Shown one piece after another: positions 18,513-26,538 of a DNA stretch of 64,000 bases (the first letter of the stretch is position 1; every line of letters begins with the position of its first letter). The notes beneath the pieces were generated by a model, which saw nothing but the letters and a program-made list of their open reading frames with translations, did not search any database and was not told the origin of the DNA. The stretch comes from Gammaproteobacteria bacterium (GTDB lineage Bacteria; Pseudomonadota; Gammaproteobacteria; Eutrophobiales; Eutrophobiaceae): contig JAKZTI010000009.1 in assembly GCA_047517145.1 (NCBI GenBank), positions 818 to 64,817 on the forward strand, in the 5' to 3' direction. Both the position numbers and the translations under genes were made by a program.

Positions 18513-19160
18513 ATGTACAGCAAGCTTTACTCTATATTACTTGTATTCCTAGCGGGGACTTTTCTGCCTCTGCAAAGCATCGCCCATGAGACAGCAATCA
18601 CCAGAGAGATCGAGTCCGTTGAGGTTATCCACAATGGCCAGAAAGTCACCATTATGCGCAATCAGAATACAAAGAATACCGTTGATTCGGCCTATGCCAA
18701 AACTTCACGAAAATGTCCGCCATTTTGTATTCAGCCATCTAAACTCGCAGATGGTGTAGAAACAATTGGCGAACTGGAAATGCTGGATTACCTGAAACGC
18801 TCTAGCCAGGGTGACCAAACCATCCTTGTCATCGATTCACGCACACCTGACTGGATAAAGCATGGCACCATCCCTGGCAGTATTAACATTCCCTGGACTG
18901 AACTAAAACCGGGTGCGGGTGCGGATTCTTTCACGATTGCCGATATTCTGGAAAAAAAGTTTGGTGCACAGTCATTAGAGGGTCTGTGGGATTTCTCCAA
19001 TGCAAAGACACTGGTTCTTTTTTGTAATGGCATGTGGTGTGGACAATCGCCATCCAATATAAAAACACTACTGAGATTTGGCTACCCGGCACACAAGTTA
19101 AAATGGTACCGGGGCGGCATGCAAAACTGGCACAATCTCGGCCTGACGGTTGTCAAATAG
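18513..19160 (+). CDS. periplasmic single-domain rhodanese-like sulfurtransferase
   Basis: 215 aa with a signal peptide and a rhodanese fold. The active-site Cys loop is FCNGMWCGQS. Confidence 0.75.
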   Translation: MYSKLYSILLVFLAGTFLPLQSIAHETAITREIESVEVIHNGQKVTIMRNQNTKNTVDSAYAKTSRKCPPFCIQPSKLADGVETIGELEMLDYLKRSSQGDQTILVIDSRTPDWIKHGTIPGSINIPWTELKPGAGADSFTIADILEKKFGAQSLEGLWDFSNAKTLVLFCNGMWCGQSPSNIKTLLRFGYPAHKLKWYRGGMQNWHNLGLTVVK

Positions 19161-19265
19161 ACAAATTAGAAATCCACCTGATAAACAATAAAACATCTTC
19201 TACTGTCCAGGCCCTCACGTTACAATGCGCGATTTTCCACAGGTCTAAACATCAGGAGTGAACGT

Positions 19266-21002
19266 TTGAAACAAGAATTACAGCAACTCCTCATGGAGGC
19301 TATTTCAATCGTTCAGAAGAAGATGGATGTTTCATTCACTGCCATTGATGATATTCAGATAGAACGAACCCGTGACAAGTCCCATGGTGATTTTGCCTGC
19401 AACATCGCCATGGTACTTGCCAGGCAGGCAAAGACAAATCCCAGAAAATTGGCTGCTGCACTACTTGAAAATATACCTGAATCCGAAACTATTGAACGCG
19501 TCGAAATTGCTGGGCCAGGTTTCATTAATTTTTACCTCACCAAACAATCTCGTCTGAATGTTATTACCAGGATCCTGCAAACAGCTGAAGCCTATGGTCG
19601 TTCAGAGTTTGGAACTGGAAAATCGATATTGATTGAATTCGTTTCAGCTAACCCCACAGGTCCCCTGCATGTAGGTCACGGACGTGGCGCCGTTTATGGT
19701 GCTGTGGTTTCCGATTTACTTGAGGCCATTGGTTATAAAGTAGACAGAGAATATTACGTCAATGATGCTGGACGACAGATGGATATTTTGACCGTCAGTA
19801 TCTGGCTTCGCTATCTTGAACTATGTGCAATCAAGATTGATTTCCCTGAAAATGCCTATCAGGGAGATTACATTCGAAACATCGCAGACAAACTGTTAAG
19901 AGACAAAAAACAGTCTCTCAGTTCTGACATAGATTTTCCTGAAACAAAGGACGATCCAGAAATAAATATAGATCAATTAATCGCCTTTACCAAAACGACA
20001 CTTGGTAGTGAAAATCATCAGGCCATCCTGGATTTGGGCTTGAATGAAATACTTGATGAGATACGTGCTGACCTGGCTGACCTTGGTGTGGTCTTCGACC
20101 GTTGGTTTTTTGAACATTCACTGGAAGACGACGATCAAATTCAGGAATGCATAGCCAAACTCAAGGACAGTACTTTTGTTTATGAAGAAGAGGGCGCACT
20201 CTGGTTTCGCTCAACAGCGTTTGGGGATGAAAAAGATCGAGTCATCATCCGTGATAATGGACAAGCAACTTATTTTGCATCGGACATTGCTTACCATGTG
20301 GAAAAATTCTCACGAAGCTATGACAAAGCCATTAATATCTGGGGAGCAGATCATCATGGCTATATTGCCAGGGTAAAGGCAGCGCTTTCTGCGCTTGATG
20401 AAAACCCTGATGCGCTGGAAATATTACTGGTCCAGTTTGCAACACTATACCGAGGCACTGAAAAATTACCGATGTCTACCCGCTCAGGGCAGTTCGTTAC
20501 ATTAAAAGAATTACTTAATGAAGTGGGGAAGGATGCCACGCGTTTCTTCTACATTTCACGTAAGAGCGAACAACATCTTGATTTTGATCTGGAACTGGCA
20601 AAATCAAAATCCAATGAAAATCCTGTCTACTATATCCAGTACGCACACGCCAGGATCTGTAGCGTACTGAAACAAGTAAAGGAGAAGGGATTTACCTATA
20701 ACACAGAGATCGGAAATAACAATCTACACATCCTGACCGAGCCAGCCGAAGAGAAATTAATCACAACGCTATCCCGTTATCCGGAGGTCATACATTCTGC
20801 CGCGACAGAATATGAGCCCCATCAAATCACTTATTACCTGAGAGATCTCGCAAACGAGTTTCATAGCTATTACAACTCATGTCAGTTTATCGTCGAACCT
20901 GACGATCTGAGAAATGCACGTCTTAACCTGATTAGTGCCAGCAAACAGGTTATTTGCAATGGACTTGGGATCCTAGGTGTATCGGCACCGGAACAAATGT
21001 AG
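19266..21002 (+). CDS. argS: arginine--tRNA ligase
   Basis: 578 aa with a class I HIGH motif (PTGPLHVGHGRG) and a KMSK-like motif (LPMSTRSG). Likely a TTG start at 19266, preceded by a CAGGAGTG SD. Confidence 0.93.
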   Translation: MKQELQQLLMEAISIVQKKMDVSFTAIDDIQIERTRDKSHGDFACNIAMVLARQAKTNPRKLAAALLENIPESETIERVEIAGPGFINFYLTKQSRLNVITRILQTAEAYGRSEFGTGKSILIEFVSANPTGPLHVGHGRGAVYGAVVSDLLEAIGYKVDREYYVNDAGRQMDILTVSIWLRYLELCAIKIDFPENAYQGDYIRNIADKLLRDKKQSLSSDIDFPETKDDPEINIDQLIAFTKTTLGSENHQAILDLGLNEILDEIRADLADLGVVFDRWFFEHSLEDDDQIQECIAKLKDSTFVYEEEGALWFRSTAFGDEKDRVIIRDNGQATYFASDIAYHVEKFSRSYDKAINIWGADHHGYIARVKAALSALDENPDALEILLVQFATLYRGTEKLPMSTRSGQFVTLKELLNEVGKDATRFFYISRKSEQHLDFDLELAKSKSNENPVYYIQYAHARICSVLKQVKEKGFTYNTEIGNNNLHILTEPAEEKLITTLSRYPEVIHSAATEYEPHQITYYLRDLANEFHSYYNSCQFIVEPDDLRNARLNLISASKQVICNGLGILGVSAPEQM

Positions 21003-21004
21003 AC

Positions 21005-21574
21005 ATGCCTAAAGATTATAAAAACATCACATCAAAGAAAAAAACCAGGTCTGGCAATAACAACCAGCTAAAATCTTTTTTTTCTGGCCTGGCAGTCGGT
21101 CTCTGTGTCGCGGTTGTTGTTTATTTCTATGAACATGATCTCGCACAACAAACAGGAATAATGCCACCTGAAGTTACCATAGAGAGTCCTGAACCAGAAT
21201 TAGACCTGTCAAATGACAACCCGCCACCCTCGTTTGATTTCTATGAAATTCTCCCCAATATGGAAGTCAATGTTTCCGAATGGGAAGCTGAAGAAGATGA
21301 GGATATTAATGAACAATATAAACCAAGCGATGAAAAATCCGGGATCTATATCCTGCAAATTGGGTCCTTCAAACAATATAATGCAGCTGACGAAATAAAG
21401 GCAAAACTTGCACTCATGGGCATCACGGCTGATATACAACGTGTCGTGATCAATGGCAAAGATATACGACACCGGGTAAGGGTCGGACCCTATGCTGAAT
21501 CAGATAAACTCTCAATGGTGCGCCAACAGCTGACCGAAAATAATCTTAATTATCTGTTACTAAAACTTAAATAG
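21005..21574 (+). CDS. SPOR-domain cell-division protein (FtsN/DedD-like)
   Basis: Basic N-terminus, one TM segment, an acidic/Pro-rich linker and a C-terminal SPOR domain (GIYILQIGSFKQYNAADEIKAKL...). An argS-SPOR gene pair is conserved in Pseudomonas. Start set to the ATG at 21005. Confidence 0.8.
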   Translation: MPKDYKNITSKKKTRSGNNNQLKSFFSGLAVGLCVAVVVYFYEHDLAQQTGIMPPEVTIESPEPELDLSNDNPPPSFDFYEILPNMEVNVSEWEAEEDEDINEQYKPSDEKSGIYILQIGSFKQYNAADEIKAKLALMGITADIQRVVINGKDIRHRVRVGPYAESDKLSMVRQQLTENNLNYLLLKLK

Positions 21575-21605
21575 GTAAAATAACGACAACATCACACACT
21601 GGAAT

Positions 21606-21679
21606 TGGAGCGGGTGATGGGAATCGAACCCACGTATTCAGCTTGGGAAGCTGATGTTCTACCATTGAACTACACCCGC
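21606..21679 (-). tRNA. tRNA-Gly (anticodon CCC)
   Basis: Minus-strand sequence GCGGGTGTAGTTCAATGGTAGAACATCAGCTTCCCAAGCTGAATACGTGGGTTCGATTCCCATCACCCGCTCCA folds as a cloverleaf. The anticodon loop is TTCCCAA, and the sequence is very similar to E. coli glyU. Confidence 0.93.
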
Positions 21680-21912
21680 ATTGAGAAACTAGAATCAATC
21701 TACATTCAAGGTATCAGAAAAACCCACCTTCCGCAGTGTGCTCTCTATCATATTTTCGTGTAATATTCGCCGTAGATATCAAATAAAGCCTGCATTTAAA
21801 AGTAGGAAATTCTTTGATTTTAATAATATAATCAGACGGTTGAACATTTATTATTAGCCACGGCCCAAAGTGGATTCGGAAAGTAGGCTGGCTGGGAGAT
21901 AAGGCTAGATTC

Positions 21913-22311
21913 ATGGGGAATACAAAGCCAATTGTCGTTGCTGTGGACAATAGTCCATCAATGAAAAAATTACTCGAAAGAAGCACGGAAAATCTGGATA
22001 TTGATTTAACTGTGTTTGCTTCCGCAAAGGAAGCGTGGTCGTATCTTCAATCAAACACTCCGGACCTGCTTATTCTTAATATCATAATGCCTATCAAGGA
22101 TGGCTTATCCTTGTTAAACGAAGTTCGGCAGTTGCCCAATAATCGGCAAACACAAGTAATCATTGTCAGTTCAAAGGATTATGCTCAAGATCGAATCCTC
22201 GCGAACGAGCTTGGAGTCCTGGAATTCATCGCCAAACCCATGCCGATGCAGACAATTACTGATGTTGTAGTAAAATACACCCAGGCAAGCTCGAAAAACC
22301 AGGATAAATAA
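21913..22311 (+). CDS. stand-alone receiver-domain protein with the phospho-acceptor Asp replaced by Asn (pseudo-receiver)
   Basis: 132 aa with a CheY-like fold. DD is replaced by DN (VDNS), and the acceptor position reads LILNIIMP instead of LILDIIMP. The downstream S and K (IAKP) positions are conserved. Confidence 0.75.
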   Translation: MGNTKPIVVAVDNSPSMKKLLERSTENLDIDLTVFASAKEAWSYLQSNTPDLLILNIIMPIKDGLSLLNEVRQLPNNRQTQVIIVSSKDYAQDRILANELGVLEFIAKPMPMQTITDVVVKYTQASSKNQDK

Positions 22312-22329
22312 GCAAATAATAATAATCAA

Positions 22330-23238
22330 ATGAGTAAAACACAACTCCGATTCTGGGGTGTGCGTGGGTCTTACGCAGCACCTTTTTCTACCCACCTTGG
22401 TGTCGGTGGAAATACTTCGTGTGTGGAGATCAGATCTGGCGATCACCTGCTCATCTGTGATGCTGGAACAGGCATAATCCCGCTTGGGAACGAATTAATG
22501 CAACAGGATAAAATCCGGGAAATAATGGTCATTCTGACACACTATCACTGGGACCATGTCTGTGGCCTGCCTTTCTTTGTCCCTGCCTTCGTGCCTGACT
22601 GGAAGATCAATTTTTTTGGTCCTGGTGAGGACCCTAGAGTAATGGAGCAAAATATTTCTTCACAGATGCAGGCTCCTTATTTTCCAGTTGGCACAGAAAC
22701 CTGGCTGGCTGAAATAAATTATCTCGATCTGAAAGTTGATAGCTTTGAATATGGTCCTATGAAAATTGACTTCTCCAACGTACATCATCCAGGCATTACT
22801 TATGGATACAAGATTGAAGTTAGTGGTAAAACAGTTATTTATGCATCAGATAATGAGTGTATGTTTATTGAAAAAGCTATTCAACACCGCTCTGATGAAC
22901 TCAACAAAGAAGAGCTTGAGCTCTTTAATGAAATGATTCATGAAGAACATCAATCGGAATTAAATTTTTTTAAAAACGCTGACATCCTTATCCACGATGC
23001 TCAATATACACCTGAAGATTATGATAAAAAACGCGGATGGGGCCACTCTTGCTATATCGATACCATTAAAACGGCGATAGGAGCCAATGTGAAAGAGCTT
23101 TACCTTTTTCACCATGATCCAAACTATAATGATGATGCTATGGAAGCAATACTCAAACATTCTAATGAAATTATCAAAGAAAAAGGCGCTTCACTTATCT
23201 GTCACATTGCTAAGGAAGGCATGGTCATAGATATTTGA
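22330..23238 (+). CDS. metallo-beta-lactamase-fold hydrolase (PhnP / RNase Z-like Lactamase_B_2 family)
   Basis: 302 aa with an HxHxDH motif (LTHYHWDHVCG) and later His/Asp metal ligands (HHDPNY). It begins 18 nt after the receiver gene. Confidence 0.75.
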   Translation: MSKTQLRFWGVRGSYAAPFSTHLGVGGNTSCVEIRSGDHLLICDAGTGIIPLGNELMQQDKIREIMVILTHYHWDHVCGLPFFVPAFVPDWKINFFGPGEDPRVMEQNISSQMQAPYFPVGTETWLAEINYLDLKVDSFEYGPMKIDFSNVHHPGITYGYKIEVSGKTVIYASDNECMFIEKAIQHRSDELNKEELELFNEMIHEEHQSELNFFKNADILIHDAQYTPEDYDKKRGWGHSCYIDTIKTAIGANVKELYLFHHDPNYNDDAMEAILKHSNEIIKEKGASLICHIAKEGMVIDI

Positions 23239-23277
23239 ATTTTTCAGTGTAAGCGTTTCATCAATCAACCAGTGTCC

Positions 23278-23475
23278 ATGCAAATCACCCTCAACGGCGA
23301 ATCACTTGTAGTTGATAATCAAGTGAATATTGTTCAGTTACTCTCCAGACTGGAAATTTCGGGTCGCCTTGCTGTAGAGGTCAATCAACAAATTATTCCC
23401 CGCAGTTTATTTTCCACTTATGAAATTGAGTCAGGTGACAATGTTGAAATCGTTGAAGCTATCGGTGGTGGTTAA
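23278..23475 (+). CDS. thiS: thiamine biosynthesis sulfur-carrier protein ThiS
   Basis: 66 aa beginning MQITLNGE and ending ...IVEAIGGG, the C-terminal Gly-Gly. Its stop overlaps the thiG start (TAATG). Confidence 0.88.
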
Positions 23476-24272
23476 TGGCAGCTAAAAACAATCTTGAAGA
23501 TCCGGTCGTCATCGCCGGGCAAACATACACATCAAGATTACTCCTGGGTACCGGTAAATATAAGGATATGGATGAAACCCGGCTTGCCATCGAGGCAAGT
23601 GGATCACAAATCATTACTGTTGCTATCCGTAGAACCAACATTGGTCAAAACACCGATGAACCAAATTTACTGGATGTCATCTGCCCGGATAAATACACCA
23701 TCCTGCCAAATACGGCCGGGTGCTACGACGCAGACTCCGCCATAAGAACCTGTCTGCTGGCGCGCGAATTACTTGATGGCCATAAACTGGTCAAGCTTGA
23801 AGTGCTCGGCGATGAAAAAACTCTTTTCCCTGATGTGCCAGCAACAATCATTGCCGCAGAAGCTCTAATCAAAGAAGATTTTGATGTCATGGTTTATACC
23901 AATGACGACCCTGTTATGGCTAGACGCTTTGAGGAAATGGGCTGTGTTGCCGTCATGCCACTGGCTGCACCTATCGGCTCAGGCCTTGGCATTAGAAACC
24001 CGTACAATATAAGAACAATCGTAGAAAATGCATCTGTTCCCATTATTGTAGACGCTGGCGTTGGCACGGCTTCAGATGCTGCAATTGCCATGGAACTAGG
24101 TTGCGATGGTGTTTTAATGAACACAGCTGTTGCCGAAGCCAACAACCCTGTGTTGATGGCCAGCGCAATGAAAAAAGGTATTGAGTCCGGTCGTGAAGCA
24201 TTCCTTGCAGGTCGTATGCCGCGCCGCGCCTATGCCAGCGCATCATCTCCCATTGATGGCACATTTTTCTAA
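23475..24272 (+). CDS. thiG: thiazole synthase
   Basis: 265 aa with a ThiG TIM-barrel, including the conserved [14 protein letters not shown] and [13 protein letters not shown] segments. Confidence 0.92.
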
Positions 24273-24309
24273 CTCAGAATAATACCCTCAGCAGTAAAGC
24301 TACGTTGTA

Positions 24310-25002
24310 ATGACAGCAGATACAAAACAGCATCCACCAATACGTAGTTTTGTATTGCGCGACGGGCGTATGACAGCAGCACAAAAAGATGCGCTTGAAA
24401 CATCATGGCCAGTACACGGTATTGAATTTAGTAAGGTGCCTTTAGATATGCATAAAATATTTGCACGACATGCACCCAGAATACTGGAAATCGGAACTGG
24501 TATGGGGGATGCCACCGGCCAGATGGCAGAAAACCATAAAGAGAATGACTATCTGGCTATTGAGGTGCACCGTCCTGGCATCGGTAGCCTCATGCGACAA
24601 ATTGAAGAAAAGCAACTATCGAATATTCGCCTCATCTCTCATGACATCGTTGAAATTTTAAAATTCCAGTTACCTGAAAATAGCATTGATTGCGTTTATA
24701 TATTTTTCCCCGATCCATGGCCCAAGAAAAAACACCATAAAAGACGCCTGATAAATTCATCACTCCTGTCTTTGATTAAACCCATTTTAAAAAAACACGG
24801 TCGTCTTTTTATCGCAACCGACTGGGAAAATTATGCAGAACAAATCATTGAATTAATCGCGTGTGAATCAGGGATCATAAATCTCGCCGGGGAAAATCAG
24901 TATGCACCCCGTCCACGATGGCGGCCAATGACAAAATTTGAAAATCGGGGGTTAAATAAAGGTCATCGTGTATTTGATTTTGCGCTGGCTTATAAATATT
25001 AA
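24310..25002 (+). CDS. trmB: tRNA (guanine-N7)-methyltransferase
   Basis: 230 aa with a SAM-binding motif (ILEIGTGMGD) and FPDPWPKKKHHKRR. Lies in the conserved thiSG-trmB order. Confidence 0.9.
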   Translation: MTADTKQHPPIRSFVLRDGRMTAAQKDALETSWPVHGIEFSKVPLDMHKIFARHAPRILEIGTGMGDATGQMAENHKENDYLAIEVHRPGIGSLMRQIEEKQLSNIRLISHDIVEILKFQLPENSIDCVYIFFPDPWPKKKHHKRRLINSSLLSLIKPILKKHGRLFIATDWENYAEQIIELIACESGIINLAGENQYAPRPRWRPMTKFENRGLNKGHRVFDFALAYKY

Positions 25003-25006
25003 TCTT

Positions 25007-25660
25007 CTAGGCAGAAAATAATTCTCTGAAATCATCGACAGCAAAAAATTCCGCTGATGTTCGTATTGGCAAATGGCTGTCTGGTTTGGCAATGCTCAGC
25101 AAATGACGGATCCCATATTCTTGCGCAACCCGCAATACCGTCAGGTTGTCATCAATAAACAAAGACTTCTCCTGGCTGAATTGAACAGTATCGGAGAGTA
25201 ATTCCCAGAATTCCCTGTGCTCTTTTGGACTGCCCAATGCATGGGCTGAAATAATATGATCAAAATGTTTTTTAAGTCCTGTTTTTTCAAGTTTTACCTC
25301 AAGAATTCTTTCATGGGCATTGGTGACCAGTACAATTTCCTTGCCCATTTCTTTCAACTTACACAGTAACTCCTCTGTAAAAGGTCTCGTTTTTATTAAA
25401 TGCTCAACGTCCTGTTTAAGTCTAAAAACATCCAGCTCTAGCTCATCAGACCAGTAATCCAGGCAGTACCACGCCAATGTACCTTCCATGGCTTTAAATC
25501 TTGGGATCAATGCTGCTTTCGCAGTATCAATATCCATGCCTTTTGGTTTTCCCCAACATTCGGGCAGGTATTCTTGCCAGAAATAGTTATCAAAATGGAG
25601 ATCGAGCAAGGTGCCATCCATATCCAGCATCACCGTATCAATCTCATTCCAGTTAATCAT
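25007..25660 (-). CDS. HAD-superfamily hydrolase (nucleotidase YrfG-like, subfamily IA)
   Basis: 217 aa with HAD motif I (DMDGTLLD) and downstream motifs. It converges on trmB with a 4-bp gap. Confidence 0.75.
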   Translation of the reverse strand: MINWNEIDTVMLDMDGTLLDLHFDNYFWQEYLPECWGKPKGMDIDTAKAALIPRFKAMEGTLAWYCLDYWSDELELDVFRLKQDVEHLIKTRPFTEELLCKLKEMGKEIVLVTNAHERILEVKLEKTGLKKHFDHIISAHALGSPKEHREFWELLSDTVQFSQEKSLFIDDNLTVLRVAQEYGIRHLLSIAKPDSHLPIRTSAEFFAVDDFRELFSA

Positions 25661-25731
25661 TTGTTATGCCCTGTTGGTATTCTCTATTATCATAAGCAAC
25701 TAATGTCTCACATAATACCCGTAAAACTAAA

Positions 25732-26538
25732 ATGGAAATAAACCAAGAGCTAATTGAAGAAATTTGTCAGATTGCCAGCAATGCTGCGAATTGCATTCTT
25801 GAAATTTATGATACTGATTTTTCTGTTGAGAGTAAGAAAGATCGTTCTCCCTTAACCGCTGCTGATCTGGCTGCACATAATACCATCTGTACGGCCCTCG
25901 AAAATTTAACACCTGATGTACCGGTGCTGTCAGAAGAGTCTTCGGAACTGCCTTACGCCGTGCGCAGTCAATGGTCGCGTTACTGGCTGGTTGATCCATT
26001 AGATGGCACGCGTGAATTTATCAAGCGTAATGGTGAGTTCACAGTCAACATCGCCCTGATTGAAAATGGGCAACCAAGCCTGGGGGTGATCACTGTTCCT
26101 GTCACAGGTGTTTGCTATTACGCCGCAACATCACTCGGCGCTTTTAAAACGAATGCTGATGGAATCACAGAATCGATAAAGATAAAAAAATCCGAGCTCA
26201 ATAAATTAACCATCGCTGGCAGTCGTTCACACGGGAGTGAACAACAGCAGGCCCTTATCGATCAGTTGGATGGCGCTGAAATTATTGCTATTGGTAGTTC
26301 CTTGAAATTTTGCCTGGTCGCAGAGGGCAAGGCAGATATCTACCCAAGGTTCGGATTAACTTCAGAATGGGATACCGCTGCGGCACAATGTATTGTTGAA
26401 GAGGCCGGTGGCTGTGTTGTCGATATGGATTTCAAACCAATTCGTTACAACACTAAAGACTCCCTGCTGAATCCAGAGTTTCTGGCAATTGCAGACCCAT
26501 CATTTAACTGGAAGCAGTATTTGGACAAAATAAAGTAA
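25732..26538 (+). CDS. cysQ: 3'(2'),5'-bisphosphate nucleotidase
   Basis: 268 aa of the inositol monophosphatase family, with WLVDPLDGTREF and GSSLKF motifs. Confidence 0.88.
   Translation: MEINQELIEEICQIASNAANCILEIYDTDFSVESKKDRSPLTAADLAAHNTICTALENLTPDVPVLSEESSELPYAVRSQWSRYWLVDPLDGTREFIKRNGEFTVNIALIENGQPSLGVITVPVTGVCYYAATSLGAFKTNADGITESIKIKKSELNKLTIAGSRSHGSEQQQALIDQLDGAEIIAIGSSLKFCLVAEGKADIYPRFGLTSEWDTAAAQCIVEEAGGCVVDMDFKPIRYNTKDSLLNPEFLAIADPSFNWKQYLDKIK

Follow-up and report, generated by a model that had tools for sequence, protein, structure and literature searches.

A CheY-like receiver protein that has lost its phospho-acceptor aspartate and a metallo-beta-lactamase (MBL)-fold hydrolase are encoded side by side in the window, the 64,000-nucleotide stretch of gammaproteobacterial DNA analyzed here, and their order is kept in every assessable related locus. 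We favor, with moderate confidence, the view that the two proteins form one conserved gammaproteobacterial signalling unit in which a phosphorylation-independent receiver partners a two-metal phosphodiesterase output. The relevant features are:

21606–21679, minus strand: tRNA-Gly(CCC)
21913–22311, plus strand: single-domain pseudo-receiver (Asp-less receiver) gene, 132 aa (ORF, PF00072 match, alignment to solved receivers)
21946–21951, plus strand: acidic-pair codons GAC AAT, encoding D12 and N13; Asn takes the place of the second, metal-binding Asp (codon reading)
22078–22080, plus strand: codon 56, AAT, encoding Asn56 at the phospho-acceptor position (codon reading, alignment to the acceptor Asp of PleD and others)
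22168–22239, plus strand: retained switch residues Ser86-Ser87 (T, T+1), Phe105 (K-3) and Lys108-Pro109 (columns conserved in all homologues)
22312–22329, plus strand: 18-nt spacer between the receiver and MBL genes (TAA ends at 22311, MBL ATG at 22330)
22330–23238, plus strand: predicted MBL-fold binuclear metallo-phosphodiesterase gene, 302 aa, of an uncharacterized family (ORF, Pfam)
22537–22557, plus strand: motif II, T70-H71-Y-H73-W-D75-H76 ([T/S]HxHxDH) (sequence, homologue alignment)
22786–23118, plus strand: H153 (motif III), D174-N-E176 (motif IV), H222-D223-A-Q-Y (like the RNase Z 'HEAT' motif), W-G-H239-S ('HST'-like) and H261-H-D263 (motif V) (invariant or nearly invariant columns)
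from 23272: thiS
from 23475: thiG

The receiver ORF matched PF00072 over residues 8–118 (E = 1.1e-19; 71 bits against a cut-off of 30.2) and had 181 matches at E<0.01 among solved receivers. In alignments with PleD and other solved receivers, its LILNIIMP segment falls on their ...LD..MP acceptor segment. The phospho-acceptor Asp at the end of beta3 is absent from the protein, Asn56 standing in its place, and the Mg2+-binding acidic pair DD is incomplete (D12-N13). With the acceptor and the second metal-binding Asp both replaced by Asn, the protein can no longer take part in His-Asp phosphotransfer. The active-site Thr/Ser and Lys are present and nearly invariant (Ser86 and Lys108-Pro109), and Pro60 and Gly64 (D+4 Pro, D+8 Gly) are also kept; the roles of the T, T+1, K-3 and K positions are taken from Bourret et al., 2025. 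By its profile match, the loss of its phosphotransfer residues and the conservation of this state, the protein is a pseudo-receiver. The preliminary description had read canonical receiver fold signatures in these 132 residues, an AAT codon at the acceptor within LILNIIMP and a first acidic pair of DN rather than DD; these readings were borne out, as was its view that the usual phosphorylation is impossible, a state that is conserved in the lineage.

The preliminary description had also called for the AAT codon to be confirmed. The exact 132-aa N56 protein recurs in contigs of at least five separate ENA samples (six contigs were read, and five places are shown), and the state is conserved in relatives, so that a sequencing error at this codon is ruled out. 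When 120 close homologues were aligned with the query (121 rows), the acceptor column held S in 88, N in 23, T in 9 and D in 1, and among these close metagenomic homologues the second acidic column was N in 99 of 121 rows, query included. Most orthologous pairs retain a canonical DD..D..T..K receiver: across 54 aligned rows (53 orthologous loci and the window's own protein) the acceptor was D in 33, N in 16, S in 4 and G in 1, and the second acidic column of the orthologues in genomes was D in 44, N in 8 and E in 1. An NJ tree, which is a quick distance tree and leaves it uncertain whether one or two of the losses fell within the window's own clade, has canonical DD.D.T.K receivers at its base and at least three separate losses of Asp. 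The ancestral receiver was canonical (DD..D..T..K), and the Asp-less state is derived. Neither this derived origin nor the canonical receivers of most orthologous pairs had been noted in the preliminary description.

The acceptor codons change by single transitions, from GAY to AAY to AGY (D to N to S). Many Asn-type orthologues retain DD, S and K, that is, an active site complete except for the acceptor. Comparison of the two Asn clades revealed convergent change in the acceptor column only, with no compensatory convergent changes elsewhere in the receiver or in the MBL protein. The receiver gene is full length in 120/120 homologues at 60–100% identity, and P60, G64, S86, F105 and K108-P109 are nearly invariant across homologues and orthologues. 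Its dN/dS is 0.13–0.17 (against loci L001 and L002) at a dS of ~1.1, and that of the MBL gene is 0.08; both genes are under purifying selection.

The MBL ORF matched two Pfam models above their cut-offs, Lactamase_B_2 (4.8e-11) and Lactamase_B (6.3e-8). Motif II is invariant in 51 gammaproteobacterial and 26 distant homologues. HxHxDH and the downstream His, Asp and His ligands expected of the MBL superfamily are all in place, with H71, H73, D75, H76, H153, D174, H239, H261 and D263 invariant. The nearest solved proteins, by sequence and by Foldseek, are YhfI and BA1088 (18–21% identity; the YhfI match has an E of 2.2e-6 at 21% identity), followed by RNase Z, PhnP-family enzymes, yeast PDE1 and Apyc1. 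The placement of the HYHWDH hydrolase in an RNase Z/PhnP/class-II-like superfamily, as first described, is right by both profile and structure matches, and the search for the closest characterized enzyme that had been recommended with it led to YhfI/BA1088 and then RNase Z, at ~20% identity and below the family cut-offs. The RNase Z model TIGR02651 scored 73.2 bits against a cut-off of 292.95 and aligned well only at residues 208–284; the PhnP model TIGR03307 scored 27.6 bits against 272.25, with a match limited to residues 31–80, and the window has no phn operon context around the gene; the NCBIfam cyclic-nucleotide-degrading phosphodiesterase model NF041851 scored 36.7 bits against 400. The typical class-II PDE model PF02112 (HxHLDH) was not matched. 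Since the protein falls below the curated cut-offs of the RNase Z, PhnP and known cNMP phosphodiesterase models, it belongs to a separate uncharacterized family, a point that the preliminary description had missed; literature searches for a characterized receiver-MBL protein or family member returned nothing relevant. Its chemistry is very probably phosphodiester hydrolysis.

Two further ideas about the MBL protein were rejected. A 40-residue clade-specific insertion was considered as a docking site. This segment is longer than in Polyangia-type relatives, but its length varies widely in the family and is similar in many stand-alone relatives; the segment is therefore not diagnostic. A defence or phage link (Apyc1-like) had been prompted by faint precomputed PF23023 matches on some homologues. 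PF23023 was absent from our own Pfam scans at E up to 10, a PADLOC scan gave the MBL protein no defence match, PHROGs returned just a generic 'metal-dependent hydrolase' at 6e-10, and the neighbors are housekeeping genes.

The wider family comprises 8103 cluster representatives at E<1e-3. Among the best 150 of these representatives (50% clusters), 63 are at least 340 aa long, and 37 of the 63 carry a receiver domain, N- or C-terminal; relatives at 35–42% identity are often receiver-fused. Other partners among the 63 were cNMP_binding (5), GAF (about 5), GGDEF (2) and a cyclase with a protein kinase (1). The cNMP-binding domains are C-terminal and occur in only 5 of the best 150. Where the receiver is fused, the acceptor is Asp in 25/29. 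These fusions to receiver, or to cNMP-binding, GAF, GGDEF or cyclase domains, identify the MBL protein, as judged from domain architecture, as a response-regulator output domain.

In the window the receiver and MBL ORFs lie in the same reading frame with one TAA between them, and the 18-nt distance given at the outset is confirmed. Co-conservation of the pair in other genomes had been suggested as a check on the proposed coupling. In 53/53 assessable gammaproteobacterial loci (54 were taken, and L051 has too little upstream DNA to judge) the MBL gene is immediately preceded on its own strand by the receiver gene, with a gap of at most 60 nt or overlapping ORFs. Together with the receiver fusions in MBL relatives, this upholds the coupling. 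The pairing holds whether thiSG is nearby, absent or inverted. One context reads argS-SPOR-tRNA-REC-MBL-thiSG, a second birA-coaX-SPOR-tRNA-REC-MBL without thiSG, and in a third (L022, L033 and L052) the pair is inverted between trmB and thiG. The commonest order is REC-MBL-thiS-thiG-trmB. Thirteen Beggiatoales-type loci have the pair but no thiSG, and in L005, L019 and L021 it sits beside trmB with thiSG missing. The tRNA neighbor also differs by context, being Gly on the minus strand in one and Thr on the plus strand in the other, and it is not adjacent to the pair in the three inverted loci. The window's pair does sit between tRNA-Gly and thiSG, as had been reported; that this neighborhood is synteny only, outside the unit, had been missed. 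Seed searches of the 64-kb window found no cyclase, cNMP-binding protein, histidine kinase, other receiver or GGDEF gene, nor is there a Ser/Thr kinase in it; in related loci, genes for partner kinases, cyclases, cNMP-binding or GGDEF proteins are sporadic only.

Other explanations of the pair were weighed against the signalling unit. A role in the making of thiamine, in which the MBL protein might, for instance, hydrolyse a thiazole or thiamine phosphate intermediate and be co-expressed with thiSG, would suit the commonest gene order and the short gap between the MBL stop and thiS (about 35–40 nt, with no terminator-like site between). We consider it very improbable, for the pair does without thiSG in the Beggiatoales-type and other loci named above, is inverted relative to thiG in three more, and has fusion partners among its relatives that are signalling domains rather than thiamine enzymes; moreover, a search of positions 19000–26000 at E up to 1 matched the tRNA alone, with no TPP riboswitch or other Rfam element upstream of the pair. 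Somewhat more credible, yet still unlikely, is that the MBL protein is a ribonuclease of the RNase Z type with tRNA or another RNA as its substrate, and that it is RNA processing, not second-messenger turnover, that the receiver modulates. The HEAT-like (HDAQ) and HST-like (GHS) motifs do align with RNase Z (MBL residues 214–281 on RNase Z residues 222–289), and both main contexts have a tRNA gene shortly before the pair. Between motifs III and IV, RNase Z carries a flexible tRNA-binding arm of roughly 50 residues (B. subtilis structure); here the stretch from the motif III His to the motif IV Asp (H153 to D174) spans only 21 residues and would probably leave no room for such an arm. The score far under the RNase Z cut-off (73 vs 293 bits), the changing tRNA neighbor and the fusion partners of relatives, among which cNMP-binding and cyclase domains occur and RNA-binding domains do not, argue against a ribonuclease.

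The loss of the acceptor can also be read in other ways. That the receiver is a decaying, functionless relic, with the MBL protein working alone and the adjacency merely inherited gene order, has in our judgment a poor chance of being right. The stepwise loss from DD.N to DN.N to DN.S does resemble relaxation of a phosphorylation site, and compensating changes are lacking in both proteins; nevertheless, the gene has stayed full length in all homologues, its dN/dS is low, its switch and structural positions are nearly invariant, and two separate Asn clades have each diversified with the gene retained. An equally doubtful reading is that phosphorylation continues by another route. Maule et al., 2015, point out that an acceptor Asn can change back into an Asp open to phosphorylation and that kinases could act on Ser, Thr or Tyr substitutes; Asn56 might thus deamidate to Asp, or a Ser/Thr kinase might act on the Ser or Thr of sister lineages. 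Many Asn-type orthologues indeed keep DD, S and K intact, the site holds S in 88 and T in 9 close relatives, and one distant relative fuses the MBL domain to Ser/Thr kinase and cyclase domains. However, the window's protein lacks the metal-binding Asp13 as well, so that even a deamidated Asn56 would be a crippled target for phosphorylation; the mix of N, S, T and G at a single position resembles tolerance of any small residue more than selection for a phosphorylatable one; and the window contains neither a histidine kinase nor a Ser/Thr kinase. Counted against the signalling unit itself were the identity of only about 15–21% to characterized enzymes, the generic nature of REC, GAF and GGDEF as signalling domains with cNMP-binding so rare among the best 150 representatives, and the lack of a cyclase, cNMP-binding protein, histidine kinase or other receiver in the window.

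Under the signalling-unit explanation, a stand-alone receiver protein and an MBL-fold two-metal phosphodiesterase output would act as one unit. Its ancestral form, still present in most lineages, uses a phosphorylatable CheY-like receiver, which when phosphorylated presumably binds the enzyme and changes its activity; we infer both the direct binding and the direction of this regulation. The many receiver-MBL fusions of other phyla have the same arrangement within a single chain. Purifying selection has kept the receiver fold, the Ser/Phe/Lys switch residues and the enzyme's whole catalytic site in the window's lineage, where the Asp-less receiver has most likely survived as a regulatory or structural subunit that works without phosphorylation. 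With such a receiver the enzyme would have a constitutive setting, or would answer to some control other than a histidine kinase. Its likeliest substrate would be a second messenger of the cyclic nucleotide type, such as cAMP, cGMP or a related molecule. A broader proposal, which we hold to be rather unlikely, is that the pair and its fused relatives make up a large class of two-component outputs, receiver-gated MBL-fold cNMP phosphodiesterases, and that in several gammaproteobacterial lineages the module has been uncoupled from histidine kinases and the Asp-less receiver has become an obligatory, phosphorylation-independent allosteric subunit; the Ser/Thr sister lineages may have been rewired to Ser/Thr-kinase control. 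If this were true, D, N, S, T and G orthologues with one enzyme would give a direct readout of pseudo-receiver action.

To our knowledge, most studied pseudo-receivers are DNA-binding regulators without a canonical orthologue for comparison. Here, sister lineages keep the pair with an intact Asp, and therefore provide natural matched versions for testing how a pseudo-receiver works: one conserved enzyme partner occurs with canonical or N, S, T or G receivers according to lineage, and the enzyme's rate would be an easy quantitative readout. Pseudo-receivers account for several percent of bacterial receiver domains, and their on/off switching "remains a mystery" according to a 2025 review. The MBL family has thousands of members, repeatedly fused to receiver, cNMP-binding, GAF and cyclase domains, and our literature searches turned up no experimental study of it. 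Knowing what the enzyme acts on would fill a gap on the degradative side of bacterial second-messenger signalling.

Compared with known enzymes, the window's MBL protein has the HEAT-like and HST-like motifs and motif V in common with RNase Z/ElaC, but its genomic surroundings and the fusions of its relatives point to signalling, not to RNA processing. The signature [T/S]HxHxDH in a PF12706-type MBL domain marks the 'atypical class-II PDEs' (PMC9293780), and THYHWDH at residues 70–76, in a PF12706 domain, is common to the window's protein and the atypical class-II cNMP phosphodiesterases B. subtilis YhfI, M. tuberculosis Rv1339 and C. glutamicum CpdA. From these it is nevertheless remote (18–21% identity to YhfI/BA1088; 36.7 against 400 for NF041851). 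The C-terminal cNMP-binding domains of its relatives resemble the MBL and cNMP-binding architecture of Dictyostelium GbpA/GbpB. Unlike the MBL-fold cNMP phosphodiesterases (the YhfI group, GbpA/GbpB and phage Apyc1), it has motifs of its own (RGS at 12–14, GGNTS at 26–30, E176 and WGHS) and a longer helical segment between motif IV and HDAQ.

The predicted logic, a receiver governing a phosphodiesterase output, is that of Dictyostelium RegA (receiver and class I PDE), which is activated by phosphotransfer to its receiver Asp. By contrast, the catalytic domain here is MBL-fold rather than class I/HD-type, receiver and enzyme are separate proteins, and Asp phosphorylation is impossible in the window's lineage. 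Like ALRs or pseudo-receivers such as RitR (Asn53), the window's receiver matches PF00072 without an acceptor Asp; Asn and Ser are among the commonest ALR replacements, at 16% and 15% (Maule et al., 2015), and it shares the loss of the second acidic residue with about 80% of pseudo-receivers (Bourret et al., 2025). It differs from RitR-type proteins in being stand-alone with an enzyme partner rather than a DNA-binding regulator. Whereas both switch positions are kept in only 47% of pseudo-receivers (Bourret et al., 2025), the window's receiver keeps the D+4 Pro, D+8 Gly, T, K-3 aromatic and K, and, unlike ALRs, it has orthologues with the same partner that still possess the canonical site.

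Two adjacent ORFs of the window very probably constitute a conserved module in which a receiver in the pseudo-receiver state is paired with a putative phosphodiesterase, with the switch residues of the former retained and the enzyme motifs of the latter intact. The features concerned are:

21606–21679, minus strand: tRNA-Gly(CCC), upstream of the receiver
21913–22311, plus strand: receiver ORF, 132 aa, same strand as the MBL ORF
22078–22080: receiver residue 56, codon AAT (Asn), phospho-acceptor position
22330–23238, plus strand: metallo-beta-lactamase (MBL)-fold ORF, 302 aa
Within the MBL ORF, invariant motifs: [T/S]HxHxDH; H153; D174-x-E176; D223 within H-D-A-Q-Y; W-G-H239-S; H261-x-D263

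The preliminary description had read the first ORF as a CheY-like protein with an Asn acceptor (LILNIIMP) and a first acidic pair of DN rather than DD. Both readings hold, and so do all its other factual statements. The ORF matches PF00072 (Pfam profile search, residues 8–118, E 1.1e-19) and can be aligned end to end with solved receivers, e.g. PleD, NtrC, and PhoP; the segment PDLLILNIIMP falls on their ...LD..MP acceptor segment, and therefore residue 56 is the phospho-acceptor position. Residues 12–13 are D-N (GAC AAT), where other receivers have the Mg2+-binding DD pair. Further landmarks are kept: Pro60 (D+4), Gly64 (D+8), Ser86-Ser87 (T, T+1), Phe105 (K-3), and Lys108-Pro109. With these residues, the receiver cannot take a phosphoryl group on Asp.

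A sequencing error at the AAT codon was ruled out, since at least five separate ENA samples yielded contigs that encode the identical 132-aa protein including N56 (two such contigs measure ~2.3 Mb each) and the non-Asp acceptor is conserved in homologues. Among 120 receiver homologues (60–100% identity), the acceptor column holds S 88, N 23, T 9, and D 1, counts that include the query's own row (121 rows in total). At position 13, 99 of the 121 rows have N, and S86/S87, F105, K108, P60, and G64 are essentially invariant. Purifying selection speaks against the receiver being a relic. The dN/dS values against the two nearest genomic orthologues (0.13–0.17 for the receiver, 0.08 for the MBL; dS ~1.1–1.4) point to a maintained protein rather than a decaying gene.

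The receiver stop codon (TAA) is followed by 18 nt and then by the MBL ORF, the spacing noted previously. Scanning one genome per species gave 80 loci carrying MBL homologues (hereafter L-numbers), 54 of them gammaproteobacterial (mostly MAGs, plus Beggiatoales such as Thiomargarita, Thioploca, Marithrix, and Parabeggiatoa), with MBLs 49–80% identical to that of the window. Of the 54, 53 have a same-family receiver gene immediately upstream in the same orientation, with a gap of ≤60 nt or overlapping ORFs; the sole exception, L051, is not assessable, with <300 nt of DNA upstream. The coupling proposed in the preliminary description thus extends to related genomes, and the two genes are one conserved unit. 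Two loci have an insert between them. At L006 (4923–5886, minus strand; one MAG), IS30-like transposase fragments, a remnant, split an otherwise tight pair, and at L026 (4713–5759, Candidatus Parabeggiatoa) an additional MBL-fold ORF of 348 aa with an HPHNDH motif precedes the orthologous MBL. Over 21913–23238 the two ORFs of the window share a reading frame, with TAA and six sense codons (A N N N N Q) between them; a single stop-codon change would restore the fusion architecture known from other phyla. No fused homologue was seen among close homologues.

As described before, the pair sits between tRNA-Gly and thiSG: argS and a SPOR-domain gene lie upstream, and thiS, thiG, trmB, a HAD hydrolase gene, and cysQ downstream. 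The commonest order across loci is argS-SPOR-tRNA-Gly-REC-MBL-thiS-thiG-trmB, REC being the receiver gene. At L022, L033, and L052, the pair lies in inverted orientation between trmB and thiG; L005, L019, and L021 are without thiSG; and no thiSG adjoins the pair in 13 Beggiatoales-type loci, 10 of which have (birA-)coaX-SPOR upstream and six a tRNA-Thr. Because the neighborhood varies while the pair stays, and no TPP riboswitch or other Rfam element was found near the pair, the thiSG and tRNA surroundings are synteny outside the module. A thiamine-related role was rejected, as the pair is independent of thiSG. No histidine kinase, cyclase, or cNMP-binding gene was found within the 64-kb window.

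We also noted that a tRNA gene precedes the pair in both main contexts, usually after a SPOR gene (window 21005–21679). In the first, argS-SPOR is followed by tRNA-Gly(CCC, minus strand). In the second, found at L024, L028, L030, L035, and L041, birA-coaX-SPOR is followed by tRNA-Thr(TGT, plus strand). The SPOR genes of the two contexts differ from each other. L027 has the tRNA-Thr, with no coaX or SPOR gene detected. At these six loci the tRNA lies ~200–700 nt upstream of the receiver. This recurrence may be due to chance, to a site favored for insertion, or to a link in function. Separately, the MAGs behind L002, L004, and L009 bear the titles 'Enterobacteriaceae' or 'Klebsiella pneumoniae'; since their loci show synteny with uncultured gammaproteobacterial loci, at 65–80% identity, these bins are probably mislabelled.

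When 1.84 billion cluster representatives were searched exhaustively with HMMER, 8103 MBL relatives were returned at E<1e-3. The best 150 of the 8103 (34–69% identity) include 63 proteins of ≥340 aa, which were Pfam-scanned. Thirty-seven of these 63 carry a receiver domain, at either protein end, and Asp occupies the acceptor in 25 of the 29 alignable fused receivers; other domains are cNMP_binding (5), GAF (~5), GGDEF (2), STAS (1), and, in one protein, an adenylate/guanylate cyclase domain with a Ser/Thr kinase domain. Repeated fusion to mostly Asp-bearing receivers indicates that MBL domains of the window's type recurrently serve as outputs of bona fide response regulators, with the gammaproteobacterial gene pair as the split version of the fusion. 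Such a fusion may occur in a Chthoniobacterales MAG (L063 1257–2645), where a 463-aa stop-to-stop ORF combines the MBL match with, upstream of it, a weak receiver-like hit (E 1.2e-4). In some distant receiver-less relatives, a cNMP-binding-domain ORF adjoins the MBL (Bryobacteraceae, Bacteroidota), and in one, from Spirochaetes, two receiver genes and a histidine kinase adjoin it (features at L078 3218–4825, L079 1–486, and L074 6901–9249).

In 54 aligned receivers (53 orthologous loci and the window's own protein) the acceptor is D in 33, N in 16, S in 4, and G in 1, most with the full DD..D..T/S..K set. A neighbor-joining distance tree built from the MBL partner, with distant homologues that have no receiver as outgroup, puts canonical receivers on the basal branches and shows loss of the acceptor Asp in at least three places: in a DD.N.S.K clade nested among D-type loci (L018, L019, L023, L031, L034, L037), in the window's clade (DD.N to DN.N to DN.S), and at L052 (Gly). 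Acceptor codons match single transitions, GAY (D) to AAY (N) to AGY (S), with GGC for Gly, and in neither protein does any column other than the acceptor change convergently in both Asn clades. The Asp-less state is thus derived and recurrent. The acceptor was lost first and the metal-binding Asp second, with switch residues and partner enzyme untouched, a pattern that fits phosphotransfer abandoned and some other receiver function retained.

The MBL ORF matches Lactamase_B_2 (4.8e-11) and Lactamase_B (6.3e-8) in Pfam, and its residues 70–76 are T-H-Y-H-W-D-H, in line with the hydrolase and HYHWDH motif noted earlier. All metal-ligand and catalytic motifs are invariant among 51 gammaproteobacterial and 26 distant homologues. 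It scores far below the cut-offs of the curated NCBIfam models for RNase Z (73 bits versus 293), cyclic-nucleotide-degrading phosphodiesterase (37 versus 400), and PhnP (28 versus 272), and is therefore best placed in the phosphodiesterase branch of the superfamily, outside every named family. A helical segment linking motif IV to the HDAQ motif (residues 177–217, window 22858–22980) is exactly 40 residues long in 51/51 gammaproteobacterial orthologues and ~15–17 in Polyangia-type relatives; as its length varies widely across the wider MBL family, it was rejected as a receiver-linked signature.

What is said here on the putative enzyme function is based on homology and on domain context. An RNase Z-like action on RNA draws support from the fold ranking and from motifs in common, but against it stand the sub-threshold RNase Z score, a short motif III–IV spacing, and fusions of signalling type. 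The signature [T/S]HxHxDH is shared with the 'atypical class-II PDEs' YhfI, Rv1339, and C. glutamicum CpdA, themselves close to RNase Z (Thomson et al., 2022; PMC9293780). A cyclic mononucleotide substrate is a tentative proposal, favored mainly, and indirectly, because some relatives share the architecture of Dictyostelium GbpA and GbpB (cGMP/cAMP phosphodiesterases), an MBL followed by cNMP-binding domains.

We consider direct regulation of the MBL through receiver binding somewhat probable: the receiver would bind the enzyme and set its activity, like a fused receiver. In the window's lineage control would no longer come from a histidine kinase, and the enzyme would be either locked in one state or steered via the receiver by other input. 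Cryptic regulation by Asn deamidation or Ser/Thr phosphorylation, a possibility raised by Maule et al. for aspartate-less receivers (ALRs), is weakened by the loss of D13 and by the variety of acceptor residues (N, S, T, G).

Pseudo-receivers are common (put at 4%, 6%, or 13% of receivers, depending on the analysis), with Asn and Ser as frequent acceptor replacements in ALRs (Maule et al.). Receiver-controlled phosphodiesterases, e.g. RegA, and MBL-fold cNMP phosphodiesterases are already known; in full-text literature searches, no work on a receiver-MBL protein came up. What appear to be new are the way these elements are combined here, their division between two genes, how large the uncharacterised MBL family is, and a natural D, N, S, T, G receiver series on one partner enzyme.
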